Positions 2,130 to 59,011 of a DNA stretch of 64,000 nucleotides are shown here, in pieces. Numbering within the stretch: position 1 is the stretch's first letter; each line of letters starts with the position of its first letter. Under the pieces are notes generated by a model. It saw nothing but the letters and a program-made list of their open reading frames with translations, was not told where the DNA came from and did no database searches. The position numbers and the translations under genes were made by a program. Origin of the DNA: a virus; the IMG/VR virus record IMGVR_UViG_3300045988_155830, positions 1 to 64,000 of that record. One strand, 5' to 3'.

Positions 2130-2170
2130 ATCCATAGTAAATGATTTACTACACAGGAGGTAGCGAAATA

Positions 2171-3124
2171 ATGAATACAAACACAGTAAAAATCACACCA
2201 TTATTCCAGAAAGTCGGAATTGACATTGTTGAATTTCCACAACAGGATAAAGCAACGAAATTAAAGAAAGATGGAACGCCAAAAAATATTGTGTGCAACA
2301 AAAAGAAAGGCAAGAAATCAGAAGCTTATGCTATTGAAATTCCTGATATTAAGAAGTTAATAGATTTCTTTTATCAAAATGAAATGTGGCAACATTATTT
2401 GATTTTTGTTTTGTCCTGTAATATGGCTCGCCGTATTGGTGATACACTTACTTTGACTTGGGAGCATTTCTTTTATCCGACAACTGGTGCGATGAGAAAT
2501 GACTTGCTTGAAATCGTAGAGGACAAGACCGACAAGCTCGCAAATCCTCATATCAATTCAGCCTGCAAAAAAGCAATTCTGCTTTATATTGAAAAAACAG
2601 GTATCAATCCTGCCGAAAACAATTATAAGAATTATGTTTTTGTGCAGACCAGCGGAAACTATAAAGGTAGAGTTATTACTGATGATGGCTACCGTAAAGG
2701 CTTGAAAAAGGCTGCTGTTCAAGTTGGTATTGAGTATAACATTGGAACTCATAGTCCTCGTAAAACTTTTGGTATGATTAGTAGGATGTTGCATCCAAAT
2801 GATTATGATAGTATGGAACTCCTTCAGACTATCTATAATCATAGCGATACCAAAACAACAAACCACTATATCGGATTAACAAAGAAGAAGATTGACACCT
2901 ACTATAATGATATGGGTTCATTTTTTGATGATTATATCACAGGTGATAAAACATATATGGAAGTTGCAGAGCAGCCCGTAGTAAGTATTGATACTAATTC
3001 TTTGAGAGATATTATCAAAGAGGCATATAAAGCCGGAGCAGAAAATGCAGATAACACCGACCCTGTTATTCACATTGATGCAATCAACAAAATTATCGGT
3101 ATGATTGAAAGAGTGGCAAAGTAA
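2171..3124 (+). CDS. tyrosine site-specific recombinase / phage integrase
   Basis: ARRIGD (box I Arg), HSPRKTFG (H-x-x-R) and a C-terminal NHY(I) tyrosine motif, matching the R-H-R-Y catalytic signature; RBS GGAGG precedes ATG 2171. Confidence 0.6.
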   Translation: MNTNTVKITPLFQKVGIDIVEFPQQDKATKLKKDGTPKNIVCNKKKGKKSEAYAIEIPDIKKLIDFFYQNEMWQHYLIFVLSCNMARRIGDTLTLTWEHFFYPTTGAMRNDLLEIVEDKTDKLANPHINSACKKAILLYIEKTGINPAENNYKNYVFVQTSGNYKGRVITDDGYRKGLKKAAVQVGIEYNIGTHSPRKTFGMISRMLHPNDYDSMELLQTIYNHSDTKTTNHYIGLTKKKIDTYYNDMGSFFDDYITGDKTYMEVAEQPVVSIDTNSLRDIIKEAYKAGAENADNTDPVIHIDAINKIIGMIERVAK

Positions 3125-3359: not shown

Positions 3360-3737
3360 GTGAATAATGAAATATCAAAACATTTCGCAGTTAATAAAGA
3401 AGCTCAAAACCTTATGTGGAATGAATACGATGAAGTTCGTAAAAATTCTATTGATAAGGTATCTGGCAATCGTGGCGGTGATTGGTGTGAGATTATATAT
3501 TCCGATAAGTCAAAGGAAACTTGGAGTATATACCCTGTTGATATTCCAAAGACAGAGAAAATCTGTGTAACTTATAAGACAAGAACAGACATTGTATATT
3601 TCATCACTAAAAAAGAAATTACCGTTGATAATTTTTTCATATATCAATATGATATAAACAAAAGTGAAACAATTAAACTTGGTAAAGGTAATAATCCAAT
3701 TTTACTGGAGCAGAAGTATATAAAAAATATTTCTTAA
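3360..3737 (+). CDS. hypothetical protein (GTG start)
   Basis: 125-aa ORF from the track; a nested 67-aa ORF at 3367 is judged spurious. Confidence 0.35.
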   Translation: MNNEISKHFAVNKEAQNLMWNEYDEVRKNSIDKVSGNRGGDWCEIIYSDKSKETWSIYPVDIPKTEKICVTYKTRTDIVYFITKKEITVDNFFIYQYDINKSETIKLGKGNNPILLEQKYIKNIS

Positions 3738-6959: not shown

Positions 6960-7373
6960 ATGTTATATGAAGAAATGCGATTGCGAAAGACTGGCGAAAC
7001 TGTAAGAGTATATGCTATTAACCCTTCGGAAAATATAGCAACTATATTCTCTACTTCTCAATATACTAAAACAAATAACGGATGGCAGAAAATTAAGTTA
7101 TCGCAGTTAGTTCCGATGGATTTTCCTATTAACAATAAAGATTATATTTCTAAAACAAAGAAGAACAAAGCGAAAGATAGAATGAAATTGATTGAAGCTA
7201 CTTGGCAAACCAGTGACGGAAATCTTTGGAATCATTCTGACATTGATGCAGCAGTGGAACACGAACTTTTTCTTATGAGTTTAGAGGAAAATGGCAATAA
7301 GGAAAATAAAGACGGTAATGAAATTGTATATACTGCATCAGGAAAAATTGTAAAAATAGGAGGTCAAATATGA
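6960..7373 (+). CDS. hypothetical protein
   Basis: 137-aa ORF with a GAAAGAG RBS. Confidence 0.5.
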   Translation: MLYEEMRLRKTGETVRVYAINPSENIATIFSTSQYTKTNNGWQKIKLSQLVPMDFPINNKDYISKTKKNKAKDRMKLIEATWQTSDGNLWNHSDIDAAVEHELFLMSLEENGNKENKDGNEIVYTASGKIVKIGGQI

Positions 7374-8434
7374 TTAAGTTTATTGATAAAAAGAATAGAT
7401 TTGTTGAAATGTTTGACAAGAATACAGGTTTTTATGTTAGAAGTGGAGTTATGGGAGAATATGGAAAAGATACTGGTGTTGACCCATTTATGAGATGTTT
7501 TCCAGCACTTATTGATGTTGGTATTATGAATAAATGTGTTTGCGCTCATAAGTGTAATGTTGACTGTTATCAGAGAGCCATCGACCGTCACGGAGATAAT
7601 ATGTCTCTTGAAGATTATAAGTCAATTCTTGAACAGTGTAAAGGCAAAACATTTCAGTATGCTTTGGGTGGAGCAGGAGACCCTGATACACACGAAAATT
7701 TCAAGGAAATTCTTGAATTATCAAAAGAGTATGGTATCATACCAAACTTCACAACGTCAGGAATTATGATGACAGAAGAAAAAGCAAAACTTTGTAAAGA
7801 ATATTGTGGAGCAGTTGCCGTATCAGAACATTTTGCTGATTATACAAGAAAAGCTATTGATATGCTTTTGTCTGCCGGAGTAAAGACAAATATTCATTAT
7901 GTTCTTGGTTCTGATTCTATCGACTATGCTATTGAGCGGTTGAAGAACGGTGGGTTTGATAAAAGGATAAATGCTGTTGTATTTCTTCTTTACAAGCCCA
8001 TTGGTCTCGGAAGAAAAGAAAATATTTTAACAATGGATAATCCAAAAGTCAAAGAATTTTTTGAATTAGTTGATACAGGTAATTATCCTCATAAGATAGG
8101 CTTTGATTCTTGCTCGTGTGGTGGAATTGTAAACTTTTCACAGCATATTGATATGAACAGTATCGACTTCTGTGAGGGTGGCAGGTATTCAATGTATATT
8201 GATGCTGATATGAATGCTATGCCTTGTTCCTTTGGTAATCAGAATAGTAAGTATTTCGTGAGTCTGCGTAAATATTCTATTGAAGAAGCGTGGGAGAGTG
8301 AAATATTTAATCAATTCAGAAATTCTCTCAATCATTCTTGCCCTAACTGTAAAGATAGAGCAATGTGTGGCGGAGGTTGCCCCATTTGTCGAGATATTGT
8401 TTTATGTGACAGAAAGGAAAAACATTTACTATAA
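7370..8434 (+). CDS. radical-SAM-like / SPASM-domain enzyme, with a non-canonical N-terminal Cys cluster
   Basis: C-terminal CPNCKDRAMCGGGCPIC has the Cx2Cx5Cx3C SPASM/twitch spacing; a Gly-rich ALGGAGDP motif resembles the GGE motif; the N-terminal Cys cluster is CVCAHKCNVDC. Confidence 0.5.
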   Translation: MIKFIDKKNRFVEMFDKNTGFYVRSGVMGEYGKDTGVDPFMRCFPALIDVGIMNKCVCAHKCNVDCYQRAIDRHGDNMSLEDYKSILEQCKGKTFQYALGGAGDPDTHENFKEILELSKEYGIIPNFTTSGIMMTEEKAKLCKEYCGAVAVSEHFADYTRKAIDMLLSAGVKTNIHYVLGSDSIDYAIERLKNGGFDKRINAVVFLLYKPIGLGRKENILTMDNPKVKEFFELVDTGNYPHKIGFDSCSCGGIVNFSQHIDMNSIDFCEGGRYSMYIDADMNAMPCSFGNQNSKYFVSLRKYSIEEAWESEIFNQFRNSLNHSCPNCKDRAMCGGGCPICRDIVLCDRKEKHLL

Positions 8435-9478: not shown

Positions 9479-9507
9479 TTGACAAATGGGGATATGTATG
9501 CTATTAT
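9479..9507 (+). promoter_or_regulatory. sigma-70-type promoter TTGACA-17-TATTAT; the conserved motif lies downstream in the 5' UTR
   Basis: TTGACA at 9479-9484 and TATTAT at 9502-9507. Confidence 0.5.
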
Positions 9508-9559: not shown

Positions 9560-10168
9560 ATGAAAGTTAATATTACAAACAACATTTCTAATGTAAATGT
9601 TACAGTCAATCAGAATGATGATGGCTCACTTGCTATTCTTCTTTTTGAAAAGACAGGCAAAAAGCTCGGTGATTTTAAGCCCGGTGAAACTGTAAAACTC
9701 GGCAAACGTGAGTATATTATTCTTGGTCACGGAGCAGAAACAACGGCAGTTGTGACAAAAGATATTTCAAAGGAAATGGAGTTCGGCAAGAGCTGGGATT
9801 ATTCAAAAAGTTATGTTCGTGATTACTGTAATGGAGATTTCTATAATGAACTTGCAGAAGCAGTCGGCAAGAACAATATTGTTCCTCACAGAGTAAATCT
9901 CACCTGTGACGATGGCTCAAACAAAGGTGTAACTTGTAAGGATGATGTTTCTATTCTCACAACTGAAAATTATCGCCGTTATCGTGAATATCTCCCTGCA
10001 CTCGGCAAACCTTGTTGGACTGCAACAGGTGTTACTACACTTGATAAGGATTATGCTCGTAGCGTTTGCTGTGTCAATTCCTACGGCATTCTTTGCTGGC
10101 GTGATTGTGACTTTGCCTTTGGTGTGCGTCCGTTTTGTATCTTGAATTCTTCAATCCTTGTATCTTGA
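9560..10168 (+). CDS. DGR target protein 1, with a variable C-terminus in a DUF1566/C-type-lectin-like domain
   Basis: The C-terminal 27 codons coincide with VR1; the ending YARSVCCVNSYGILCWRDCDFAFGVRPF resembles a DUF1566/CLec-fold C-terminus. Confidence 0.6.
   Translation: MKVNITNNISNVNVTVNQNDDGSLAILLFEKTGKKLGDFKPGETVKLGKREYIILGHGAETTAVVTKDISKEMEFGKSWDYSKSYVRDYCNGDFYNELAEAVGKNNIVPHRVNLTCDDGSNKGVTCKDDVSILTTENYRRYREYLPALGKPCWTATGVTTLDKDYARSVCCVNSYGILCWRDCDFAFGVRPFCILNSSILVS
10055..10134 (+). repeat. DGR variable repeat VR1
   Basis: 80 bp aligned to TR 10570-10649 has 9 mismatches, every one at a TR adenine (9 of 16 TR adenines substituted, 0 of 64 non-A positions). Confidence 0.8.
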
Positions 10169-10179
10169 ATTGACTTCAA

Positions 10180-10548
10180 ATGAGTGAAGAAACTAAATTT
10201 CTAATAGGTGAAAAAGCGGAAATACTATATACAGAGGTTTTTGACTTGACAACAAATAGACAACATTATCCTGTTAAGTTTCGCAGACTTGCCGACAAAT
10301 TACAAGAATATACACTTGATATACATAGTGATATTATGGATGCGAATTCATATCCAACTGATACGTTAAACCATAAGCAGAAAAGGTATGACTTACAAAC
10401 AAGTGCAATAACAAAGTGCAATAAACTTGCTTCTTTAGTAAAATATAGTTTACACGCTCATTTAATAAGTTTTAGTACAAGCGAGAAGTTGATAGCGTTG
10501 ATACACGATGTAAAATTTATGGCTCTCGCTTGGAGAAAGCAAACTTAA
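10180..10548 (+). CDS. avd: DGR accessory variability determinant (Avd)
   Basis: 122 aa, sitting between target and TR; internal YPVKFRRL...IMDANS and C-terminal LIALIHDVKFMALAWRK match the bAvd four-helix-bundle pattern as I recall it. Confidence 0.6.
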   Translation: MSEETKFLIGEKAEILYTEVFDLTTNRQHYPVKFRRLADKLQEYTLDIHSDIMDANSYPTDTLNHKQKRYDLQTSAITKCNKLASLVKYSLHAHLISFSTSEKLIALIHDVKFMALAWRKQT

Positions 10549-10569
10549 TATTGTGGGTTATATGCTGTT

Positions 10570-10649
10570 GCTCGTAACGTTTGCTATGTCAATTCCAACG
10601 GCATTCTTAACTGGAATGATTGTGACTATGCCTATGGTGTGCGTCCGTT
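10570..10649 (+). repeat. DGR template repeat (TR), non-coding
   Basis: Near-identical to VR1 and VR2; rich in AAC/AAT/TAT codons in the VR frame; lies between avd and the RT; the overlapping ORFs 10553..10771 and 10639..10848 are spurious. Confidence 0.8.
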
Positions 10650-10763
10650 CTGGTGGATTAGTGAGGTTTATAGACCACTTTTGTGGTCACAAAGAGTACA
10701 CCACTACATCAAAAGAGCATATAACCCTTCTCATAGAAAGTGGGATAAATACAAAAGATTATT

Positions 10764-12176
10764 ATGGATGATTTTCAGACCCTCGTTGATTTTGAAAATC
10801 TCTATAATTCTTACCGAACTTCTATGCGAGGTAAAGGTAAGAAATTGAGTGCGGCGAAGTTCGATGTTATGGCACTTGAAAACCTTTATGTGATGAAGAA
10901 ACAACTCATTAACCATACATATAGGATTTCACCGTATTCAGAGTTTATTGTAACAGAGCCAAAGAAAAGAATAATCAAATCAGGTTCATTTCGAGATAAG
11001 GTATTACAACATTGCTTATGTGATTATGTATTATTGCCAACTATGAAAGACCGTTTTATAAAGGACAATTATGCAGGTCAAATTGGTAAAGGAACATTAT
11101 TCGGACTAAATCGTTTGTCAGAAAATTTACATAATTTTTATGACAAATATGGTAGTGATGGATATATACTAAAATGTGATATAACCAAATTCTTTTATAG
11201 TATCAACCACGATATTATGAAAGAGAAGATAAGAGAAAATTTTTCGGATGAAGATATTCAATGGATTTGTGATAGTTTTATAGATAGTGTTGATGGAGAT
11301 GGGCTACCTCTTGGAAATCAAAGCAGTCAAGTATTTGCCCTGATATTCCTCAACGGACTTGACCATTATATTGTCGATGAGCTTGGATGTAAATATTATG
11401 GCAGATATATGGATGACTTTTATTTACTATCTAATGATAAAGAGTATCTAAAAGAATGTCTTATTAAAATCAAAGAGTATTTAGCTAACTTAAAATTAAC
11501 GCTTAATAACAAGACTGAAATTGTTTCTATGAGTAAAGGTATTAGATTTCTTGGTTTTCATACATATTTGACCGAGCAAGGTAATGTTATAAGAAAACTA
11601 AATGGAGATAACAAAAGACAAGTTAAAAAGCGTTTAAGAAAGTACACAAAGTTAGTAGTACAAGGAAGAATGAAACGAGAAAAGTTCAATGAGATTTACT
11701 GTTCTTGGCGGAATCACGCATCTCACGGTAACTGTTTCAAGTTGATTTATGGAATGGATTTGTTTGTGGAAAATTTATTTAATGAAGAAAAACCTGAAAT
11801 AAGGGTTATTATTGCCGGTAGTAGAGACTTTAATAACTACGAACTATTGGAAAAGCACCTTAATAAATTCGTCAAAGAACACCCTAATAATAAGATAACT
11901 ATTATAAGCGGTGCTGCTCGTGGTGCAGACCAACTCGGAGAAAGATATGCCAGAGAAAAGTGCATATTATTAAAGAGGTTTTCGGCAAATTGGGAACAAT
12001 TCGGTAAAAGGGCAGGTTATATTAGAAACATTCAAATGCTCGACTATATAGATGCATCTACCTGCGATTCATATGTGTTTGCATTTTGGGATGGAAAGAG
12101 TAAAGGAACAAAACAAATGATTGATAGTGCTAAAAAACGAAATATACCGTATCAAATTGTAGCATTTCAATCTTAA
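10764..12176 (+). CDS. DGR reverse transcriptase with an extra C-terminal SLOG/DprA-like domain
   Basis: YMDD motif; PLGNQSSQVFALIFLNGLD matches the DGR-specific [LI]GxxxSQ motif; C-terminal IISGAARGADQLGE resembles the Rossmann-like SLOG/DprA fold. Confidence 0.85.
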   Translation: MDDFQTLVDFENLYNSYRTSMRGKGKKLSAAKFDVMALENLYVMKKQLINHTYRISPYSEFIVTEPKKRIIKSGSFRDKVLQHCLCDYVLLPTMKDRFIKDNYAGQIGKGTLFGLNRLSENLHNFYDKYGSDGYILKCDITKFFYSINHDIMKEKIRENFSDEDIQWICDSFIDSVDGDGLPLGNQSSQVFALIFLNGLDHYIVDELGCKYYGRYMDDFYLLSNDKEYLKECLIKIKEYLANLKLTLNNKTEIVSMSKGIRFLGFHTYLTEQGNVIRKLNGDNKRQVKKRLRKYTKLVVQGRMKREKFNEIYCSWRNHASHGNCFKLIYGMDLFVENLFNEEKPEIRVIIAGSRDFNNYELLEKHLNKFVKEHPNNKITIISGAARGADQLGERYAREKCILLKRFSANWEQFGKRAGYIRNIQMLDYIDASTCDSYVFAFWDGKSKGTKQMIDSAKKRNIPYQIVAFQS

Positions 12177-12197
12177 AAAATAATTTTACAAAACCTC

Positions 12198-12226
12198 TTG
12201 ACAAACATCTAAATATATGATATAAT
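12198..12226 (+). promoter_or_regulatory. sigma-70-type promoter TTGACA-17-TATAAT
   Basis: TTGACA at 12198-12203 and TATAAT at 12221-12226. Confidence 0.55.
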
Positions 12227-12234
12227 ATAGAAGT

Positions 12235-12630
12235 AATCAAGAGTGCTGACCTAAAAGGTCAGCAATTCTAAATGCATTAAGAAATAATATTGAGCAACGC
12301 AAAAATAAATAAGCAACAATCGAGTAGTGAACAGCAAAGCCTTACGAGGATATGCCACAATGTACGAACCATTCAGAAAGACCGTACAATCACTGAATGG
12401 GTGGCAGGAATTAGAACTAATGGTGTAACGGTAGCATAGCGGCGGTGAGGTCGTGGCTCTGGTTCGACTCCAGAATGTTCGACCAAAAAGAAAGTTCCTT
12501 AAAAGTATCGGCGTTTGAAAAAGCAATGTAAAAATAGAAAGTAATTAAGAGAGATAATTGTTGGTACGTTGTGCGCAGACTAATCCAGCCATTGCTCCCA
12601 TAGGTGCGAGACCTATGGCTCGATTTTTAG
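12235..12630 (+). ncRNA. candidate structured ncRNA (promoter to terminator) containing a tRNA-like 3' element
   Basis: No + strand ORF of 60 aa or more; long-range stems (ccattcag/ctgaatgg, ggcgg/ccgcc); the tRNA-like stretch at 12431-12485 has a D-arm (tggtgtaacggtagca), a T-arm (tctggttcgactccaga), then atgttcg-ACCA. Confidence 0.35.
12598..12628 (+). terminator. rho-independent terminator candidate
   Basis: Hairpin ccatagg-tgcgaga-cctatgg followed by ctcgaTTTTT. Confidence 0.55.
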
Positions 12631-12669
12631 ATATAAAGAGAAATATAAAGAAATAAGAGGGAGTTAAAT

Positions 12670-14274
12670 ATGGCATCATTTCTCATTCCTATCGGAATTG
12701 CAATCGCAACAATTATTGTAGTTGTCATATTCTGTTGCTTAATTTATAAAGTTGCAGGTATTGACAAAGCACTCATCGTAACAGGTGGCAAAGAACCTAA
12801 AATTAAGGTATCTGGTGGTTCTTTTGTAATCCCGATTTTCCGAAAGGCTCAATATTTTGACCTTTGTATGTTGACTGTTACGGCAGACAGAGACGAAGTA
12901 AAGACCAAAACATCTGTGCCTATTGTAATTGATTGGACTGCACAGATTAGACCTGACACCGATAATATGGATAATTTGAAGAAAGCAATTATCTCATTCA
13001 AAGAACGAGGTCAAGACGGAATTATAAACGATGTAAAATTGACATTAACGGGTGCGGTTCGTGATATTGTTGCATCAATGACACCGGAAGAAGTTCTTCG
13101 TGACAAAGTTGCTTTTGCCGATAATGTTAAAAAAATTGTTTCTGATGAAATGGTAAATATGGGTATGGAACTTGTATCACTCAACATTCAGGACATTACT
13201 GACAATAACGGCTACTATGACAATATCGCTGCTCTTGATATGGAAGATAAGCGCCGCGAAGCAGAGAACAAAAAGGCGGTTGTTGACCAGGCAGTTCGTA
13301 CACAAAAAGCAGAATCCGAAAAGGTTGCTTCCCAGAATGAACTTGACTCCGAACTTGCTGTTGCTGCTAAACAAAGAGATAACAACTTGAAGATTGCGGA
13401 ATTTAAGGCAGAAACAGATAAGGCAGATGCCGATGCCGCAATCGCAGGTGAATTACAGAGAACGATTAGGCAGCAGGAAATTGCTCAACAGCAAGGTTGT
13501 ATCAAGGTTGTTGAACAAGAACAGGCTAATCTTGCGGCAATGAAAGAAAAAGAAGTAATTGCTACAAGAGCCGAGGCTGAAAAGCAAAAGAGACAAATTG
13601 AAGCAGAAGCCGATGCAAATGTCCGTAAGGTAAGTGCAGATGCTACCGTTGAGGTTGCAGAGAAAGAAGCAAGTGCTACCAAGATTACAGCAGAAGCTAC
13701 CGCAGAGAAAACTCGTAAAGAGGGTATTGCTGTTGCAGATGTTACTAAACAGAAAGGTATTGCAGAAGCAGAGGTTATTCGTCAGAGAGGTCTTGCCGAG
13801 GCGGAAGTTGAGAAACAGAAGTTAATGGCACAGGCAGAAGGCGAAAGAGCATTAGCAGAAGCTCGTGCCTCCAACGAAAAGGTCAACTTTGAGATTGAGA
13901 AGTTGAAGATTGAGAACGAAGCAAAGATTACTATCGCTACAAAGACAGCCGAGATTATGGCTAACATCGGTCAGAACGCAGAGTTCGTAAATATCGGTGG
14001 TGGCAATACTTCCAGCGGAACAGGAAATGTTCTTATCGACACTCTGGCAAGTGTCCCTGCCCTTATGAAGAAGTTGAATACAGAAAATCAGGCACTCAAC
14101 GGACAGTCATTTAATGATGAAATTCGTGGCTTGGTTTCAAGCATTGCCGAGCCTGTAAAGGGTTTACTTGCAACAACTACTAACACAACTGTTAATGGTG
14201 TTAAAGATGAAAATGTAAATTCTGACGGCGTAAAGGTTTTACCCGAAACATCTGTTGAAGATGGAACAGAGTAA
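12670..14274 (+). CDS. flotillin-like SPFH/band-7 membrane protein
   Basis: N-terminal transmembrane helix, an SPFH-like domain (GGSFVIPIFRKAQYFDL), then a long Ala/Glu-rich coiled coil (AEAE repeats) typical of the FloT/YqiK family. Confidence 0.7.
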   Translation: MASFLIPIGIAIATIIVVVIFCCLIYKVAGIDKALIVTGGKEPKIKVSGGSFVIPIFRKAQYFDLCMLTVTADRDEVKTKTSVPIVIDWTAQIRPDTDNMDNLKKAIISFKERGQDGIINDVKLTLTGAVRDIVASMTPEEVLRDKVAFADNVKKIVSDEMVNMGMELVSLNIQDITDNNGYYDNIAALDMEDKRREAENKKAVVDQAVRTQKAESEKVASQNELDSELAVAAKQRDNNLKIAEFKAETDKADADAAIAGELQRTIRQQEIAQQQGCIKVVEQEQANLAAMKEKEVIATRAEAEKQKRQIEAEADANVRKVSADATVEVAEKEASATKITAEATAEKTRKEGIAVADVTKQKGIAEAEVIRQRGLAEAEVEKQKLMAQAEGERALAEARASNEKVNFEIEKLKIENEAKITIATKTAEIMANIGQNAEFVNIGGGNTSSGTGNVLIDTLASVPALMKKLNTENQALNGQSFNDEIRGLVSSIAEPVKGLLATTTNTTVNGVKDENVNSDGVKVLPETSVEDGTE

Positions 14275-16971: not shown

Positions 16972-19218
16972 ATGAAGAATTTCAAATTAACAGAACTTGA
17001 TAAGATTTTGCTACGCCGTAAGCATTCAGTGATGTTTGAACCTGCTAATATGGCTTATGAGCAGAGCAAGACAGAAAAAGCACTCGTTGTTTCCGGCTTG
17101 AAAAATGTTCAGGCTCTTGGATTTACATTTTCAAAGGAACTTATTGAAAAAGCATTTCATTTTACAAGAGATGAGTTTACTGCTTTCTATGGTTTCCTTA
17201 TCCCTGCACTTAAAGAACTTGTTGGTGCGGATGTTGCATATAATCCAATGTACCCGAACTTTCCACAGCAGGTTGCAGAAGCAAGTGACATTGAGTTATT
17301 CATCAATGCAATCGTTCATTACTGGTCATTTGGCACATTGATTCCCGAATACGAAAAAAATGAGCGTTTACCGCTTATTGATGACAATAAAATGGCTCTT
17401 TTATCAGTAGGAAGTCACGATGATTTGATGACTATTTTCACAAATCTTGTTGAGAGCAAGACATCAATCTCGGAGCAGGACAAAGAGGACATTGAAACTA
17501 TCATTCTTGCTTGTCCTGATTATACTACATATTTTTCTGATACAATCCCTCTTAAAGAGAATGTTGCGTTCGTTGGAAAACTCATTATTGAAAAAGCACC
17601 AATCAAAAGCGCCGATTCAATAAGCAAATACTTCAAGACCGCAACGGATGTTTTACGACTTGTAACAGCACTTTCCGATGGCGACATTAGCCTTGCTTCA
17701 AAAACCAAGTACCGAAATCTTCGTAGGGTTGAACGCCGTATGATTATGGACTTGCTTACTGGCTGTGGTAACATAACAGAGGATTTATTCCGTTATCAGT
17801 ATGAATGGATTAGAGTTGCAGAAATTCTTCATCCGTTTGAATATAAAAAATCAAAGTATAGCAATGTCAACGCTGCATTCAATACTTTAAGAAACGAGAA
17901 AAAGCCTCTTATGTTTGCAGGAAAGGTTCAGGCAGCAATTACCGCAAAAGATATGCGTGAAGCTGCCACCTTGTTAAAAGCAAGACCCGGAGAGTTCGCA
18001 AGGAAACTTGACAAACTTATTCGTGATGCAGATAATCCGAATTATATTGTCAACTGTTTTAAGGAAGTTGCAACAGAAATCTCAACTCCTGTACTCCTTC
18101 AGGTAAGACAGCATTTCATAGGAAGAATGGAGAATGATAATCAGCCTGTAAGAGTATTCTTTCCTAAAGGAAACCTTGCAAAAGCTATGGTTATCAGAAA
18201 TGAACTTCCCAAAATCAATAGAAATGTATGTAAAAATGTTGCAAGGATTTGCCGTGAGGCTTTAATTGAACAGTACAAGGAAAAAGATTTTCTCGGAAAG
18301 GTTTATATTGATGAGGATTTCAAAAATTACCTTGTTCCGTTTAGTCAGAGAAGTGCAAGTAAGGCTGTTAAGACCATTGTTCGTGGTAGTAAGTTGCCTA
18401 TTAAGAAAGATGCTACGACTGTTCGTGGTTTTATTTGGTGGACTAATACTGATAACACGAGAAATGGCTGGGGTGAAGATAGGGTTGATATTGACCTTTC
18501 TGCAACCATTTATGATGAAAATTGGCAGTATGTTGACCGTGTATCATACACACAACTTCGCTCTGCAAAATATAGAGCATATCATTCGGGCGATATTACC
18601 AATGGCGGAAATGTTAATGGTGATGGCGTAGCAGAGTTCATTGATGTAGAAATTGATGCAGTTGCTAAAAACGCTGGTAGATACATTGCATTTCAGGTTT
18701 ATAGTTTTACACGACAGCATTTTTCTACGCTTCCTAATTGCCGTTTTGGATGGATGGAAAGAGAAGATGTAAACAGCGGTGAAATATTTGAGCCGAAAAC
18801 GGTTGGAATGAAAATTGACTTAACTGCTGACAGCACTGTTGCTATACCCGTTATATTCGATTGCGTTGAGCGTAAATTCATTTGGTGTGATATGAACCTT
18901 CAGAATGCAAGTTCGAGGTTTTATGGAAATAATCTTGAAAGTAATTTACACGGTGTAACCGCAACTTGCTATGGCTTAACACATCTTAATAAGGCAAATA
19001 TTTATGACCTCATAATGATGAACGCTGTTGCAAGAGGTAGTATTGTCACAGATAGAAATGAAGCAGACATCATTTTCAGTAATGATACAACAGTACCTTA
19101 TGAAATTGTAAATGAGCTTGACGAGGTTACGGGTACTACAAAACCTGTTATAAAGGAGAAGCCAGAAGTTCCGATTATCACGGCTTTCGATACCGATGAA
19201 TTATTTGCCTTGTTATAA
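16972..19218 (+). CDS. large protein (748 aa) with a TerD-like domain
   Basis: Region DIDLSATIYDENWQYVDRVSYTQLRS...YHSGDITNGGNVNGDGVAEFIDVEIDAV..RYIAFQVYSF matches the TerD consensus (HSGDn.tG.g.GDdE.i.vdL...rivf.v.iy); the N-terminal roughly 450 aa are unassigned. Confidence 0.5.
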   Translation: MKNFKLTELDKILLRRKHSVMFEPANMAYEQSKTEKALVVSGLKNVQALGFTFSKELIEKAFHFTRDEFTAFYGFLIPALKELVGADVAYNPMYPNFPQQVAEASDIELFINAIVHYWSFGTLIPEYEKNERLPLIDDNKMALLSVGSHDDLMTIFTNLVESKTSISEQDKEDIETIILACPDYTTYFSDTIPLKENVAFVGKLIIEKAPIKSADSISKYFKTATDVLRLVTALSDGDISLASKTKYRNLRRVERRMIMDLLTGCGNITEDLFRYQYEWIRVAEILHPFEYKKSKYSNVNAAFNTLRNEKKPLMFAGKVQAAITAKDMREAATLLKARPGEFARKLDKLIRDADNPNYIVNCFKEVATEISTPVLLQVRQHFIGRMENDNQPVRVFFPKGNLAKAMVIRNELPKINRNVCKNVARICREALIEQYKEKDFLGKVYIDEDFKNYLVPFSQRSASKAVKTIVRGSKLPIKKDATTVRGFIWWTNTDNTRNGWGEDRVDIDLSATIYDENWQYVDRVSYTQLRSAKYRAYHSGDITNGGNVNGDGVAEFIDVEIDAVAKNAGRYIAFQVYSFTRQHFSTLPNCRFGWMEREDVNSGEIFEPKTVGMKIDLTADSTVAIPVIFDCVERKFIWCDMNLQNASSRFYGNNLESNLHGVTATCYGLTHLNKANIYDLIMMNAVARGSIVTDRNEADIIFSNDTTVPYEIVNELDEVTGTTKPVIKEKPEVPIITAFDTDELFALL

Positions 19219-23738: not shown

Positions 23739-24626
23739 TTGATTATTGGTGGGAGTTATTTTAATGAGAAGATTATTCATAAAATGAATATTTATACTAC
23801 ATATTTTGCAAATATTCGCCATTTGCCAAAAAGTATTATACCAGTTTCAATAGCTGGAAAACCGCCCGAAAAATGGGATGGAATTGAGTATAAGAAATTA
23901 GCACCTAAATGGAGTTTCTTTTCCGAGTGGAAAAAAACTAAAAATAACGATTATTATATTGAACATTTTTATGATGAAGTATTAAGTAGTCTTACTCCAC
24001 AAAATGCAATTGATGAACTAAATAAAATTAGTTCTAATAATGATAACAAAGATATTGCCCTTGTGTGTTACGAAATTCCAAGAGATTTTTGCCACAGACA
24101 TATTGTTTCCGGTTGGTTAAATCGTAATGGGGGATATTGTGTAAAAGAATATATTGATATGAATTCTATAAAAGATACAGATGACGGAATTACACATATC
24201 AATATTTATAGTAAAGGCAAAACTGATTTAGGAAAAATGTTAAGTAACTTTTATAAGTTTCCTATACATACAGATGACGGTGATTTTCTATCAGTTGAGG
24301 GATATTGGTATTGGTTATCTATTGATGATTCGGTGAGAGAAAGAGAAGAATTACGTTATTTATATGGATTTAATGCTAAAAGCAGAGGTAAAGAAATCTT
24401 AAAAGAAACAAATGATGGTAAAAGTAGTAGATTTGAGCCTGACTTTGAAAATAAGATTCTAAAAGCTATTTGGTATAAATTAAGAAGAAATGCAAATCTA
24501 TTAACACCTGAATATCGGAGATTACCAATAGTTCATTATTATTGTTATGGTGGAAAGGTTGTTGATGTTACAAGTAAATATCAATGGTTAATAGACGGAA
24601 TTACTAAAATGAGAGATTACTTATAA
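23739..24626 (+). CDS. hypothetical protein (295 aa)
   Basis: Long ORF; start uncertain. Confidence 0.45.
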   Translation: MIIGGSYFNEKIIHKMNIYTTYFANIRHLPKSIIPVSIAGKPPEKWDGIEYKKLAPKWSFFSEWKKTKNNDYYIEHFYDEVLSSLTPQNAIDELNKISSNNDNKDIALVCYEIPRDFCHRHIVSGWLNRNGGYCVKEYIDMNSIKDTDDGITHINIYSKGKTDLGKMLSNFYKFPIHTDDGDFLSVEGYWYWLSIDDSVREREELRYLYGFNAKSRGKEILKETNDGKSSRFEPDFENKILKAIWYKLRRNANLLTPEYRRLPIVHYYCYGGKVVDVTSKYQWLIDGITKMRDYL

Positions 24627-44440: not shown

Positions 44441-44728
44441 ATGACTGAAATAAAGTTACCTTATACACATCTTCTTTATGTTAGAAAATATTCTATCATT
44501 ACCAATGATTATGAACTTTTTATCGTTGGTGTGAATACTAAAGATATTTTCCATACTATGGGAGAATATTTGTATCGAAGCGAAACACAAGTCAAGAGAA
44601 TAGACAAAGTAGAATGCACACAAGAAAAACTTGACTTTTGGGCAAAAGAAGGATATGAGATTTATGAATTTAAGGACAAGTACATTGTTAAAAATAAAAG
44701 GAAAGAAGAAAATGCAGATTACCATTGA
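44441..44728 (+). CDS. hypothetical protein
   Basis: ATG 44441 with AAAGGA RBS. Confidence 0.4.
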   Translation: MTEIKLPYTHLLYVRKYSIITNDYELFIVGVNTKDIFHTMGEYLYRSETQVKRIDKVECTQEKLDFWAKEGYEIYEFKDKYIVKNKRKEENADYH

Positions 44729-45350
44729 TAGTGCAAATATAAAAATTGAAAATGGAAAGGTTACTATTGACCTTAATCCAGAGCAACTTGCAGCATTAAC
44801 TTGTTCTAATAAAGTTGAATTATCAACACTAAAATCAGGAGATGAATTTAAGCTCGGAGATGAAGTATTCATTGTAATGGAACATACTGATAAAGGAACA
44901 AGAGTTATTTCAAAAGAGTTTGCTTATAAAGAAGTAAAATTCGGCGATAATTCAAATTGGAATACATCTCCTATTCGTAGAATGCTCAATAATGAGTATT
45001 TCGAGAAGATTGCAGCTATCATCGGCGGAGAAAACAATATTATCTCTATGGATAGAGACCTCACTTCTCTCGATGGTTTGGATGATTACGGAACTTGCAC
45101 CGATAAGGTAAGTCTTTTAACCGCTATGGAATATGCAAAGTATCATAAGATTCTTGGCTTGAAATCCAACTATCCTGATTGGTGGTGGCTTATTACTCCT
45201 GCATCCACTCCGAGTAATAACTACGCTCGTCGCGTTTGCTATGTCGGTTCCAGCGGCATTCTTGACCAGAATGGCTGTGACTGTGCCTTTGGTGTGCGCC
45301 CGTTTTTAAATCTTGAATCTTCTATCTCGGTTCTTTTGAATAAGGATTAA
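44712..45350 (+). CDS. DGR target protein 2 (paralog of target 1) with a C-terminal VR
   Basis: The C-terminus YARRVCYVGSSGILDQNGCDCAFGVRPF is homologous to target 1; the nucleotide sequence aligns to TR. Confidence 0.55.
   Translation: MQITIDSANIKIENGKVTIDLNPEQLAALTCSNKVELSTLKSGDEFKLGDEVFIVMEHTDKGTRVISKEFAYKEVKFGDNSNWNTSPIRRMLNNEYFEKIAAIIGGENNIISMDRDLTSLDGLDDYGTCTDKVSLLTAMEYAKYHKILGLKSNYPDWWWLITPASTPSNNYARRVCYVGSSGILDQNGCDCAFGVRPFLNLESSISVLLNKD
45225..45304 (+). repeat. DGR variable repeat VR2 (remote)
   Basis: 80 bp versus TR: 13 mismatches, 9 at TR adenines and 4 at non-A positions; the 3' flank shares atcttgaat..cttc with the VR1 flank. Confidence 0.6.
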
Positions 45351-55448: not shown

Positions 55449-55655
55449 ATGTTTAAATGTAAAAATTGTGGAACTGAAATGGAGAGAGTTTATTCTTTTG
55501 AAAATGAGAATGAAAGTTATCAGCAGATGAAGTGTCCTAACTGTGGCGGTGCTACAAAAAAGAGACCTATCGTGTATGACGATAACGGCAATCTCGTAAC
55601 CAATTTCAAGAAGAACAATAAAAAGAAAAAGCAGAGAAAGGCTAAAGAAGAATGA
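55449..55655 (+). CDS. hypothetical zinc-ribbon protein
   Basis: CKNCG...CPNCGG. Confidence 0.45.
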   Translation: MFKCKNCGTEMERVYSFENENESYQQMKCPNCGGATKKRPIVYDDNGNLVTNFKKNNKKKKQRKAKEE

Positions 55656-58600
55656 TTATCAATGATAAGAGAGCATTAGCCTATATCGTAACCATTGATG
55701 AAATTAGACCTATTCCGAATTACGATAGGGTTGAACACGCTCGTACAAATGGATGGTGGTGTGTAACTCGTCTTAATGAATTAAAAGTTGGAGACAAAGC
55801 GGTTTATTTTGAAGTCGATAGCAAAGTGCCGGCAGATGATGAGAGATTTAGTTTCCTTGAGGCTAAACACTACAAGATTAAAACTCAAAAAATGTGTGGA
55901 GTTTTTTCACAAGGTTTGCTAATGCCAGTTACATTATTTCCTGAATTAGCGGATATGGAAGTCGGAACAGATGTTACTGATATTCTTAAAGTTACATATT
56001 CTGTCATTGAAGATAATACAAGAAAATCCAAAAATGGAGACCCTGATGCAAAATATAAGTCTATGGCACAGCGACATCAAAAGATTTTTAAGAAACCTAT
56101 TGTGCGAAAGATTATGAAACACAAGCTCGGCAGAAAGATTATGTTCCTTTTCTTTGGAAAAAAGAAAGATAAACCATTATCATTTCCGACACATTTCCCA
56201 TTTGTTCATAAGACAGATGAAGAAAGGTGTTTAATTGGCGATACAAAAGTCCAAACAAACAATGGTGTTTTAAAAATTGCCGACATAGTAAATAAAGAGT
56301 TGCCTGTTGAGGTTTTATCTTATAATGAGAAAACAAAAACAGTTGAATATAAACCGATTATTTCTTATCAAAAATTTGCGAAGAAAGAAGATGAAGATTT
56401 AATCGAAATAAAATATCCTTACAGATTTGGAAATCAAAAAACAAATACTATTCGTTGCACCCCAGACCATAAATTTTATAATGGTTCAACTTATGTACGA
56501 GCTGATGAAATTCATCAAGGTGATAAAATTTTTATTCACCATCATTGTTATGATGACTATGTTATTCAAGTTGTTTTTGGAATGCTACTTGGAGATTCTT
56601 CAATTTATTATGATAAGAGAAGTGGTAGTAATAATATCCGCATCCAAACCTCACAAGGCGAAAAACAATTAGATTACTTAAAAATGAAGCAATCGTTGTT
56701 TGGAGAACAATTCTTTAAGATTTCCAAATGTAAAAGCGGATATTGTGACAATGTGGTTTATAAAGGGTGTCTATCGGCTGATTACAATATTTCTAAAGCT
56801 GTATTAGAAAATTGTTTTATTAACAATAAGAAAACAATTACACCTACAATGTTAAAATATATTACGCCACTTTCTCTCGCAATTTGGTATATGGATGATG
56901 GCAACCTTAAACATAAATATGATAGTTGTAGTCCATCAATTATTATTTCTACTTGTGGTTTTTCAAAAAATGAAAATGAATTGCTAATTGATATGTTGAG
57001 AAATAATTTTGGAATTGAGTGCAACTTGCGTAGAGAGAAAAATAAATATTGGAGCATTTATATTACAACTGAAGGAACAAAGAAGTTCCTAAAACTCATT
57101 ACTCAATATATCCCACCGTGTATGAGGTATAAAACATTACAAGAATATGAGAATGATTATTTTTCTATCCAAGATTTAAGATATAAAAAGCAGGAACGAT
57201 TGATGCCCATACCAGTAATATCAATTAAAAAATATAAGGGTATTAGACGATATAAAACTGTTTTTGATATTGAAGTTAAAGATAATCATAATTTCTTTGC
57301 GAACAATATATTAACTCATAATTGTGAGAATATGCCGTGGGTTCTTGGATATGAAAGACCGTTAATCGTGACTGAAAAACTTGATGGTTGTCTTGATAGA
57401 GATGTTAGCGTTGTTACAGATGCTGGTTCGTTTAAGATTTCAGAAATTGTAAACAAAAAACTTCCTGTGAATGTTCTCACTTATAATTCTAATTTGAATA
57501 TTTGCGAATACAAACCGATTGTAGATTATCACAAATGGGAAAGAGTATCGGATATGTATGACATAGTAGTATCTCAACAAGGTTATAAGTGTGAAAACAA
57601 ACCGAAACATATTCGCTGTACAAGTGAACACAGCTTTTATGTTGGTAACAATCAATACATAAAAGCTAAAGACTTAAAAAATACTGATATAATTTATCAT
57701 AGATATGAAATTATTGATACATTAGTAAAAGAAATCTTATTGGGAATTTTGCTTGGAGATGCCTCATTATCTTCTAAATACGGAGTAATAAATGGTGGCG
57801 TTGATTTTAGTCATTCTATTAAACAGAAAGATTATTTTAATGAGATAAAAAGATTGTTGGGTCAAAATATTTCAATAGATACAACAAAATCGGGATATAA
57901 TTCTGAAATGTTAAGAGGTCATTTTTATACTAATTCAGAATTTAAGGAGTTGTCAAATAAAATATGTGTAAGAAATCACAAAAAATATGTAACACAAGAA
58001 TGGGCAAATGAATTAACTCCCATATCTCTTGCATTTTGGTATATGGACGATGGAACTATCTCAAATGCTGATTCAAAGTTGTCAAGACCTACAATTAGTA
58101 TTGCTACAAATGGTTTTAGTTATGAGGAATGCGAAAACTTAAAAAGAGCATTATCAACAAAGTTTAATATTGAATCAGACATAAAAATGGGAGAATCATA
58201 TAAAGGGAATACACTCTATATGAATACAATGAATACGGCTAAATTTGCTTCCTTGATTGCTCCATATATTTGCGATGGTATGAAGTACAAGTTGCCAAAA
58301 TCAATGAGAAATATTAAGTATTGTCTCGGAGATTATATAGCGAGCAATGGTAGCTCAATTACTCCCACGAAAATTATTTCTGTAAGAAAAATTGACAATT
58401 ATAACCGCAAATATGTTTTTGATTTAACAGTCAAAGATAACCATAACTATTTTGCAAACGGTATTTTAACACACAATACCTCATCTACATATATTCTTGA
58501 AAGAAAAGGCAAGAAAAAATTCGAGTTTTATGTTCTATCAAGAAATGTTCGTCAAAAGACACCTGACCAAAAGTGCTACCACGATAAGAATATTTACTGG

Positions 58601-59011
58601 GATATGGCTATTAAAAACAATATTGAGCAACGCCTAAAAGAATATCTTATTGCAAATCCAGACTTGAAATATGTCTGCATACAAGGGGAGTCTGTTGGTA
58701 GTGTTCAAGGAAATCCACTTAAATTAAACGAAGATGAACTCTATGTATTTAACTTCATTCGTTCCGATGTGGGTAGATTATCATCTATTGACGGAAAAGA
58801 AATTATTGAGAGTTGGGGTATGAAATTTGTCCCAATATTGGAAACAGAATATTATGTACCAACTGATATGGAAACATTCAAAGAGTATGCAACTGCAAAA
58901 TCTGTTGTAAATCCGAATGTATTGCGTGAGGGCATTGTGCTTCGTGACCCGACCAATGATTTTAGCTTTAAGAATGTTTCCCGTGAGTATTTATTAAAAC
59001 ACGGAGGTTAA
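55652..59011 (+). CDS. RNA/DNA-ligase-family nucleotidyltransferase (KxDG) interrupted by two LAGLIDADG inteins; the extein is about 391 aa
   Basis: Extein motifs TEKLDG|TSST (motif I), IQGESVG (motif IV) and FSFK (motif V); two insertions with the intein hallmarks Cys1 and ..THN followed by C or T. Confidence 0.65.
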   Translation: MIINDKRALAYIVTIDEIRPIPNYDRVEHARTNGWWCVTRLNELKVGDKAVYFEVDSKVPADDERFSFLEAKHYKIKTQKMCGVFSQGLLMPVTLFPELADMEVGTDVTDILKVTYSVIEDNTRKSKNGDPDAKYKSMAQRHQKIFKKPIVRKIMKHKLGRKIMFLFFGKKKDKPLSFPTHFPFVHKTDEERCLIGDTKVQTNNGVLKIADIVNKELPVEVLSYNEKTKTVEYKPIISYQKFAKKEDEDLIEIKYPYRFGNQKTNTIRCTPDHKFYNGSTYVRADEIHQGDKIFIHHHCYDDYVIQVVFGMLLGDSSIYYDKRSGSNNIRIQTSQGEKQLDYLKMKQSLFGEQFFKISKCKSGYCDNVVYKGCLSADYNISKAVLENCFINNKKTITPTMLKYITPLSLAIWYMDDGNLKHKYDSCSPSIIISTCGFSKNENELLIDMLRNNFGIECNLRREKNKYWSIYITTEGTKKFLKLITQYIPPCMRYKTLQEYENDYFSIQDLRYKKQERLMPIPVISIKKYKGIRRYKTVFDIEVKDNHNFFANNILTHNCENMPWVLGYERPLIVTEKLDGCLDRDVSVVTDAGSFKISEIVNKKLPVNVLTYNSNLNICEYKPIVDYHKWERVSDMYDIVVSQQGYKCENKPKHIRCTSEHSFYVGNNQYIKAKDLKNTDIIYHRYEIIDTLVKEILLGILLGDASLSSKYGVINGGVDFSHSIKQKDYFNEIKRLLGQNISIDTTKSGYNSEMLRGHFYTNSEFKELSNKICVRNHKKYVTQEWANELTPISLAFWYMDDGTISNADSKLSRPTISIATNGFSYEECENLKRALSTKFNIESDIKMGESYKGNTLYMNTMNTAKFASLIAPYICDGMKYKLPKSMRNIKYCLGDYIASNGSSITPTKIISVRKIDNYNRKYVFDLTVKDNHNYFANGILTHNTSSTYILERKGKKKFEFYVLSRNVRQKTPDQKCYHDKNIYWDMAIKNNIEQRLKEYLIANPDLKYVCIQGESVGSVQGNPLKLNEDELYVFNFIRSDVGRLSSIDGKEIIESWGMKFVPILETEYYVPTDMETFKEYATAKSVVNPNVLREGIVLRDPTNDFSFKNVSREYLLKHGG
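56228..57322 (+). mobile_element. intein 1 (365 aa, LAGLIDADG homing-endonuclease type)
   Basis: Begins CLIGDT; internal LLGDSSIYY and AIWYMDDGN; ends NILTHN with C+1 (CENMP). Confidence 0.75.
57389..58477 (+). mobile_element. intein 2 (363 aa, LAGLIDADG type), inserted directly after the KxDG glycine
   Basis: Begins CLDRDV; internal LLGDASL and AFWYMDDGT; ends GILTHN with T+1. Confidence 0.75.

Follow-up and report, generated by a model that had tools for sequence, protein, structure and literature searches.

A complete diversity-generating retroelement with a SLOG domain fused to its reverse transcriptase in a phage of the human gut

The RNA of the Bordetella diversity-generating retroelement (DGR) was described by Handa et al. 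(bioRxiv 10.1101/2023.10.23.563531) as carrying a duplex of an upstream strand with a spacer strand ("cPRT Stop"), a stem-loop adjacent to this duplex and followed by adenosines, and an Avd-binding stem-loop directly 3' of the template repeat (TR); the same layout was predicted for 207 other DGRs, and the reverse transcriptase (RT) that Bordetella phage BPP-1 encodes was explicitly described as lacking extra subdomains. In gut phages, DUF6273 is a published DGR target domain (PMC10743442, PMC11792537), and loss of the DGR with retention of the target has already been reported (bioRxiv 10.1101/2024.10.15.618418). HelB of Vibrio phage ICP1, for its part, is a published fusion of a helicase with a DUF2493 domain (bioRxiv 10.1101/671271). 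Here we consider a 64,000-nucleotide (nt) stretch of the virus record IMGVR_UViG_3300045988_155830, called the window throughout, to which all coordinates refer unless a locus name is given. At 9560-12176 it carries what we take, with a probability of about 0.92, to be a complete DGR carried by a large temperate phage that infects human-gut Clostridia, the host being probably Ruminococcus-like, and to have been active in the recent history of the phage population.

An earlier note on this DNA, made from the sequence, had proposed a complete DGR in the order target, avd, TR, RT. Its three open reading frames (ORFs) were reproduced at 9560-10168 (202 amino acids, aa), 10180-10548 (122 aa) and 10764-12176 (470 aa), and tests of fold, motif, repeat and RT relationship agree with its description. 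The features of the element are the following.

9479..9507, plus strand: promoter-like site, TTGACA-17-TATTAT with TG, 11 of 12 matches in a consensus scan, upstream of the target-avd-TR-RT unit; a putative promoter, judged by the consensus match alone
9560..10168, plus strand: target gene 1, 202 aa, an N-terminal beta domain and a DUF6273 domain of C-type-lectin fold, with variable region 1 at the C-terminus
10055..10134, plus strand: variable region 1 (VR1), with 9 of 9 mismatches to TR at TR adenines
10121..10134, plus strand: G+C-rich 3' end of VR1, GGTGTGCGTCCGTT, resembling an initiation of mutagenic homing (IMH) element and common to TR; VR and TR diverge after it
10180..10548, plus strand: avd, 122 aa, four-helix bundle, PHROG 3206
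10555..10566, plus strand: upstream strand of the TR-bracketing duplex, GGGTTATATGCT, pairing with 10716-10727
10570..10649, plus strand: TR, 80 nt with 16 adenines, non-coding
10673..10688, plus strand: spacer stem-loop, GACCAC-TTTT-GTGGTC, candidate Avd-binding stem-loop
10716..10727, plus strand: downstream strand of the TR-bracketing duplex, AGCATATAACCC
10729..10757, plus strand: stem-loop 10729-10745 and A-rich tail 10746-10757, the conserved tail being TAAATACAAAAG
10764..11768, plus strand: RT domain, aa 1-335, DGR type
11769..12176, plus strand: YAcAr (DUF2493) SLOG domain, aa 336-470, fused to the RT C-terminus
44712..45350, plus strand: target gene 2, of 212 aa if begun at ATG 44712, within an ORF open from the TTG at 44631; a DUF6273 paralogue
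45225..45304, plus strand: VR2, the second variable region, 67 of 80 positions matching TR, 35 kb from TR

A 72-aa ORF placed over TR by some gene callers (10553-10771) was rejected, being TR and spacer in another frame.

The evidence that carries the assignment begins with the repeats. Ungapped alignment of TR (10570-10649) with VR1 (10055-10134) shows nine mismatches in 80 nt, which all fall among the 16 adenines of TR, the 64 other bases being unchanged (hypergeometric p=4.9e-8); these are exactly the counts given in the earlier note, and its label "textbook" for the adenine-only pattern is accurate. When the whole window was scanned without gaps with the 80-nt TR, two further copies were found, at 10055 (71/80) and 45225 (67/80), both on the plus strand. 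VR1 lies in frame 0 of target 1, and TR translated in that frame reads ARNVCYVNSNGILNWNDCDYAYGVRP. All 16 TR adenines fall on codon position 1 or 2 of the VR frame, distributed over 11 variable codons, namely five AAY and three TAT, the AAC/AAT/TAT type noticed previously, with one ATT and two GAY, so composed that no stop codon can arise; by codon-table arithmetic TR can encode 4^16 DNA sequences and ~3e9 peptides. A G+C-rich 3' block, GGTGTGCG(T/C)CCGTT, is common to VR1, VR2 and TR, and the flanks diverge immediately 3' of it, as seen in an alignment of the VR and TR 3' flanks of the window and three relatives (the window as a whole has 33% G+C). By analogy with BPP-1 this 14-mer at the VR 3' end would act as an IMH-like element, the VR 3' flank being also coding sequence, where conservation is not diagnostic for a recognition element.

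Might the three 80-nt copies be nothing more than paralogous or duplicated sequence, altered by point mutation and gene conversion, accompanied by an RT of another class (group II intron, retron or defence)? The two targets are indeed paralogues, on the same strand and with 36% identity. The restriction of the changes to adenines is however not expected from duplication with random differences, and it is not confined to the window. An exact search of IMG/VR with the A-masked TR gave 0 matches, and relatives were reached through protein searches, not TR sequence; the related cassettes found in IMG/VR and in a species-representative genome collection have 66-81% RT identity. In 12 of them (L043, with its RT deletion, and 11 whose RT is uninterrupted), the mismatches between TR and VR number 9-19 at adenines and at most two at other bases, one of these two usually being the base just beyond the repeat boundary; L002 and L003 have the same adenine bias. 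With nine of nine changes at A in the window, the same bias in 12 relatives and across populations (below), and a TR that is non-coding and lies outside any paralogue, random-difference duplication is very improbable.

The RT itself bears on the second half of this alternative. Its catalytic part matches Pfam RVT_1 (E=2.4e-18, aa 67-266) and PHROG 1423 (E=1e-108), and its best match in the PDB, 8ub7_A (E=7.3e-35, aa 7-328), belongs to the entry series for the DGR ribonucleoprotein from Bordetella phage BPP-1. YMDD and LGNQSSQ, the two motifs pointed out earlier, are encoded at 11406-11417 and 11310-11330. DGR RTs carry YxDD in the palm and (I/L)GxxxSQ as motif 4, as opposed to the QGxxxSP of intron and retron RTs. 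An advocate of another RT class could point to the group II intron maturase, the top NCBIfam RT model with 97 bits, but its cutoff is 300 bits; the retron model (49 vs 235 bits) and every NCBIfam Drt (defence RT) model also scored below cutoff. No intron or retron RNA was found with Rfam, which over 10500-12700 returned nothing at the gathering threshold or at E<=1, the tRNAs elsewhere in the window being its sole matches, and the best solved relative is a DGR RT. The alternative of paralogy with an RT of another class is thereby effectively refuted, and we leave it next to no probability.

The 122-aa protein between target 1 and TR is Avd-like. It matches PHROG 3206, "Avd protein of DGR" (E=1.8e-12), and its AlphaFold2 model, built from a 47-sequence alignment, is a four-helix bundle (confidence score, pLDDT, 93.2). 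With this model Foldseek retrieved the S23-IVP/Avd family structures 2rld and 2gsc at template-modelling (TM) scores of 0.8-0.9 and BPP-1 Avd, 4dwl_D, at TM 0.73/0.83, as well as the Avd chain 8ub8_D.

The earlier note had suggested a DUF1566/C-type-lectin fold for the variable C-terminus of the target. The fold stands, and the family does not: Pfam DUF1566 has no match at E<=0.1 in target 1 or target 2, and the Pfam model matched at or above its gathering score is DUF6273 (PF19789). Structural examination of target 1 found a C-type-lectin fold, with matches including TvpA and with VR1 at the C-terminus; a sequence search of the PDB with the target gave no significant match. Target 2, called as 211-212 aa in most public contigs, matches DUF6273 with 34.4 bits and PHROG 9958 with E=2e-42. 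Its VR2 has 13 mismatches to TR, nine at A and four elsewhere (three T>C and one G>A), and because of these four the window copy of VR2 has either not been rewritten recently or has drifted. By analogy with described targets, both proteins are most likely virion receptor- or ligand-binding proteins.

Around TR, a conserved RNA structure was found. In the predicted fold of the interval from the avd stop to the RT start, GGGTTATATGCT (10555-10566) pairs with AGCATATAACCC (10716-10727) to form 12 base pairs bracketing TR, and the spacer contains the hairpin 10673-10688 and the stem-loop 10729-10745, the latter followed by TAAATACAAAAG. We examined covariation in an alignment of 13 related elements, with 500 column shuffles and with partners slid by 1-3 columns as controls. 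Over the three helices 97.2% of cells are paired, and 11 pairs show compensatory double changes; none of the 500 shuffles was as good, and the slid partners were 31-49% paired. Individually, the TR-bracketing duplex has compensatory double changes in 5 of its 12 pairs (94.9% of cells paired), the hairpin 10673-10688 covaries in all five counted pairs and is 100% paired in the 13 sequences, and the stem-loop 10729-10745 is likewise paired throughout (100%) and has one pair that covaries in 6 of the 13 sequences. This layout (duplex, stem-loop, adenosines, post-TR stem-loop) corresponds to the published one for the Bordetella element. By this correspondence 10555-10566 would be the equivalent of the upstream strand of the "cPRT Stop" duplex and the hairpin 10673-10688 a candidate for the Avd-binding stem-loop, and because the layouts match there is good indirect evidence that the element would use the same cis-primed reverse transcription as the Bordetella DGR.

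Population data show what the element has done in its recent past. Contigs from many human-gut metagenomes encode exactly this Avd protein, and a first set consisted of ten such loci, chosen for the identical Avd; four of them are identical to the window outside VR and are apparent re-assemblies of the same study, and the other six differ from it by 36-66 substitutions over 9560-12176, so that the VR1 counts are based on seven distinct haplotypes. Among these, avd has 0 variable columns in 369, largely by the selection for identical Avd, the TR-RT spacer 0 in 114, and the N-terminal part of target 1 has 11 in 495. TR is invariant in nine of the ten contigs, its two variable columns (of 80), both at adenines, being due to L007. 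VR1, by contrast with TR, has 21 variable columns in 80, made up of all 16 A-templated positions and 5 of the 64 others (Fisher p=7.5e-13). For VR2, eight contigs with seven haplotypes were fetched via the invariant downstream neighbour of target 2, and here again all 16 A-templated sites vary, together with 10 of the 64 others (Fisher p=2e-10), compared with 17 of 513 columns in the rest of the target 2 gene. The heterogeneity at adenine-derived sites that the earlier note proposed to look for is thus present as a concentration of VR variation at A-templated sites, in a comparison between samples, not within one. Since every A-templated site varies in both VR1 and VR2 and TR is nearly invariant, both targets have been repeatedly diversified during the recent divergence of the phage population. 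One VR2 haplotype, that of L022, differs from TR at nine positions, all adenines, and carries the TR base at the T/C polymorphism within the G+C-rich 3' element, as expected from recent rewriting.

We also note the TR variant of L007, in which the positions equivalent to 10628 and 10634 of the window have changed A>T and A>G, matching the bases of its own VR1. Such a change would be consistent with self-homing or with conversion of TR by VR; two mutable sites are lost by it.

Several observations nevertheless weigh against an intact and recently active DGR. Avd has no Pfam or NCBIfam match, Avd-family models included, and searches of the PDB with its sequence, as a single sequence, a 4-sequence profile or a 47-sequence profile, gave nothing significant. 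No hairpin or cruciform 3' of VR1 or VR2 beats shuffled sequence (z=-1.4 and +0.6). Non-A sites of the two VRs vary at 8% and 16% compared with a gene background of 2-3%, and the window VR2 has its four non-A differences from TR. The evidence of activity comes from contigs compared between samples and bears on the recent history of the population, not on this particular genome today. Finally, frequent loss of the element is evident from close relatives in which TR and the RT core were deleted independently. L004 and L005, with 96% and 86% identity over the retained C-terminal part of the RT, have different deletions running from mid-avd into RT and removing TR, that of L004 also taking YMDD; L042/L043 are without RT residues 127-200 and keep SLOG and the target gene; and 12 further loci have a target homologue without adjacent avd or RT. 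An apparently truncated RT in L010 was set aside, as a run of N's marks a scaffold gap there and not decay.

Let us suppose, then, that the cassette in the window is a relic that looks intact and is no longer mobile, its VR differences frozen from past activity. This would agree with the identity of the window VR1 haplotype in L006, L009, L010 and L015 (the apparent same-study re-assemblies), with the non-A differences in the window VR2, and with the A-only VR patterns kept in L004, L005 and L042/L043 despite deletion through TR and/or the RT palm. It does not sit well with the intactness of RT, Avd, TR and every RNA helix in the window, nor with the strong conservation of spacer and TR alongside VR turnover among strains whose difference elsewhere is only ~2%, and we consider a relic improbable. 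What the results above show is the make-up of the DGR, the folds of its proteins, the covariation in its RNA, the adenine-only signature and the diversification of the VRs at the population level, and we prefer a complete, recently active element.

For this element we propose the following scenario. The unit of target 1, avd, TR, spacer and RT would be transcribed, probably from the promoter-like site at 9479. In the RNA flanking TR, 12 upstream nt would pair with 12 spacer nt, and the two spacer stem-loops and the A-rich tail would complete a scaffold matching that by which RNA of the Bordetella phage is placed on RT-Avd so that reverse transcription can be primed in cis. RT together with Avd would then copy TR into complementary DNA (cDNA), misincorporating opposite the 16 adenines, and the cDNA would replace VR1 in the adjacent gene and VR2 in the paralogue 35 kb away, guided by the TR/VR homology and by the G+C-rich 3' element GGTGTGCG(T/C)CCGTT. 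In two small DUF6273 proteins, 11 codons would thereby be randomised on the surface of the C-type-lectin fold (~3e9 peptides). The priming, the requirement for Avd, the homing route and the ligand-binding role in this scenario are suggested by homology to described elements.

The 470-aa "RT" ORF holds a second domain: the RT is followed by a C-terminal YAcAr/DUF2493 SLOG domain of ~135 residues (aa 336-470). Pfam YAcAr (PF10686, formerly DUF2493, of the SLOG superfamily) matches aa 347-412 with 64.2 bits against a cutoff of 28.2, and PHROG 289 matches with E=7e-32. The domain keeps SGxxxGxD and the family-invariant W410, G418, R421, N422, W442 and G448, and its mean column conservation is 0.63 vs 0.82 for the RT. 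In a collection of 5.8 billion proteins the closest 35 RT clusters (64-97% identity) all combine RVT_1 with YAcAr, followed by ~85 clusters (63-77% identity) whose proteins consist of the RT only and have lengths of ~340-350 aa; in a rough neighbour-joining tree the fused forms fall mostly into one clade. L002, which has an RT-only element, has no SLOG gene immediately downstream of its RT. Clustered at 50%, relatives of the SLOG domain amount to >18,000 representatives. Most of these stand alone, with 120-150 aa; in the larger representatives that were sampled the partners are a 5'-3' exonuclease, PIF1 helicase, SF2 helicase, NADAR, DUF7831 and a phosphoribosyltransferase-like region. With the SLOG profile nothing significant was found in the PDB, the best match being a YpsA-like "molybdenum carrier" (E=0.16). 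In GenBank phage DNA the SLOG region has weak similarity to ICP1 helB, and a search with the window found no close relative; the nearest RT, that of phage nd12, has 48.5% identity, and in 50,697 GenBank phages not one record extends over the fused SLOG part. No paper linking DGRs to SLOG or DUF2493 was found in the searchable literature.

A 295-aa protein at 23739-24626 of the window matches the N-terminal half of PHROG 11222, and the SLOG part of the RT matches the C-terminal half of that PHROG; the two modules are therefore fused in other phages.

What does the SLOG domain do? Because RT-only sisters (L002, L031, L032, L045, L046 and L048-L050) carry the same A-specific signature, it is not needed for the core DGR reaction, and it is probably an add-on module binding nucleic acid or nucleotides. 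We see an even chance that it is an independent passenger, fused translationally to the RT and taking no part in retrohoming; it might be, for example, a counter-defence module sensing NAD+/ADP-ribose or nucleotides. The A-mutagenesis signature of the RT-only sisters, with 63-77% identity, agrees with such a passenger, and so do the many homologues that stand alone (120-150 aa) or, in some cases, are fused to NADAR, as well as the NAD+ use predicted for YAcAr domains by comparative genomics (PMC7824862). In L004 and L005, where the DGR is dead, an ORF of thumb and SLOG is still open and has 95-97% identity, a hint that SLOG may have a role of its own. On the other hand, the fusion has been stably inherited through ~35 clusters, mostly of one clade, and the other partners are mainly DNA-processing enzymes (5'-3' exonuclease, PIF1/SF2 helicases, ICP1 HelB), which argues for a role linked to nucleic acid. 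One could go further and picture the SLOG domain as a working part of the DGR, a module coupling to single-stranded DNA or the replisome that passes the mutagenised cDNA to the replication or recombination machinery, by analogy with the Rossmann domain of DprA and with the same domain on phage helicases and flap exonucleases. This appears to us rather unlikely. If it were true, it would give a natural handle on the still-unknown cDNA-integration step of DGR retrohoming, and perhaps such a module favours homing to remote targets such as VR2.

The coordinates of the ORFs left in the two DGR-dead relatives, each made of the RT thumb and an intact SLOG domain (95-97% identical) and accompanied by a retained target gene, are 9974-10747 in L004 and 10079-10774 in L005.

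By its genes and promoters, the window appears to belong to a large temperate phage: it has an integrase (2141-3124), ten tRNAs, a tRNA-His guanylyltransferase, a CCA-adding enzyme, an intein-bearing RNA ligase, a NAD-dependent DNA ligase and strong, repeated sigma-70-like promoters. Contigs with the element are 87-154 kb long and come from human-gut metagenomes. A cassette with a 76%-identical RT-SLOG is present in the isolate Ruminococcus sp. YE282, on a 207-kb contig (NZ_FMUV01000001.1) that is the IMG/VR locus L001, and the GenBank RTs closest to that of the window belong to phages infecting gut Clostridia; because of these two observations a Ruminococcus-like host is our best guess.

Some neighbouring features deserve mention in their own right. 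Immediately 3' of the RT, a non-coding stretch of ~490 nt (12177-12669) contains a perfect TTGACA-17-TATAAT promoter (12198-12226) and closes with a T-arm and 3' end like those of a tRNA (GGTTCGACTCC...CGACCA, about 12455-12487); ARAGORN and Rfam (E<=1) made no call in 12177-12669, which may encode an unusual tRNA-like or other small RNA. The gene of a radical SAM/SPASM enzyme (7370-8434) opens the segment 7370-9448; next come a short ORF and a pair of paralogous ORFs, which all start MK(I/Y)R(K/T)DFVTNSSSSS, the larger one being Cys-rich. Together they may form a peptide-maturation cassette; relatives have the gene for the radical SAM enzyme downstream of RT instead. The segment 14882-16553 looks like a phage-borne miniature type V system, as a CRISPR-like array of five 36-nt repeats (GTTTTGGAACTGTATTAAATTACATAGTTACCAAAC) with spacers of 30-31 nt lies directly upstream of a 448-aa TnpB-family/Cas12f-like protein (NCBIfam guided_TnpB 189 bits, cutoff 100; Cas12f2 126 bits, below cutoff; Pfam Cas12f1-like TNB). 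A 748-aa protein at 16972-19218, unusual for a phage, resembles the MXAN_6230/SCO0854 RING-domain family with 405 bits, below the cutoff of 600 bits. The 1119-aa RNA ligase ORF (55652-59011) is broken by intein elements (two Intein_splicing, two LAGLIDADG_2 and one PT-HINT matches), with a direct-repeat pair at 57254 and 58409. A motif of ~55 nt, AGAAATAATATTGAGAAA...CTTGACAAATAG...TATAAT, recurs upstream of gene blocks at 3720, 19712, 35142, 35697 and 47992 (and 12191), and looks like a phage-specific promoter or regulatory box.

Considered merely as a DGR, the element adds little, being a typical representative of a familiar class. As a case it is unusually clean all the same, with diversification demonstrated at the population level in two targets and with TR and spacer fixed, and the covariation gives independent support, from a distant lineage of Clostridia phages, for the RNA scaffold seen by cryo-electron microscopy in the Bordetella element. 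Gut phages with lectin-fold DUF6273 targets, with a second target far away and with loss of the DGR are known from publications; what is new here, and modestly so, is a lineage of DGR RTs fused to a YAcAr/SLOG domain. The fusion contradicts the picture of DGR RTs as bare enzymes of N-terminal extension, fingers, palm and thumb, and ties DGRs to a domain also met repeatedly on helicases and nucleases of phages; the cassette of the cultured Ruminococcus sp. YE282 makes it open to experiment.

How does the element compare with those described before? It shares with the prototype, the mtd-avd-TR-brt element of BPP-1, the gene order target, avd, TR, RT, the adenine-specific differences between TR and VR, a C-terminal VR in a C-type-lectin fold, the fold of Avd, an RT whose closest solved relative is that of BPP-1, the RNA scaffold and the G+C-rich element at the VR 3' end. 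It differs in that TR is 80 nt and not 134 nt, the targets are DUF6273 proteins of 202 and 212 aa as opposed to the 381-aa trimeric Mtd, there are two targets, one of them 35 kb away, no significant hairpin follows the VR, Avd has diverged too far for detection by sequence in Pfam or the PDB, and the RT has a C-terminal SLOG domain, whereas the BPP-1 RT is reported without extra subdomains. The DUF6273-target DGRs of gut phages, namely those of phages nd12 and nd4 (PMC10743442), of the Faecalibacterium phages Lelie, Toutatis and Brigit (PMC11792537) and of the Toutatisvirus hotspot (bioRxiv 10.1101/2024.10.15.618418), are similar in their RTs (the nearest from GenBank phages being nd12 at 48.5%, FP_Brigit at 40% and nd4 at 39%), in their DUF6273 targets with VR at the C-terminus of the lectin fold, and in having relatives from which the DGR has gone while the targets are retained. 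They too have two targets each, the second up to 17 kb off. Their phages, however, are siphoviruses and myoviruses of 30-60 kb, while the one considered here is >110 kb and has many genes for tRNAs, RNA repair and NAD; the Ig-like "tentaclin" domains are absent from both targets here, and none of their RTs covers the SLOG part. The likeness to HelB of Vibrio phage ICP1 (bioRxiv 10.1101/671271), lastly, lies in a C-terminal DUF2493 domain on a nucleic-acid enzyme, with the difference that the partner of the domain in the present element is the RT of a DGR.

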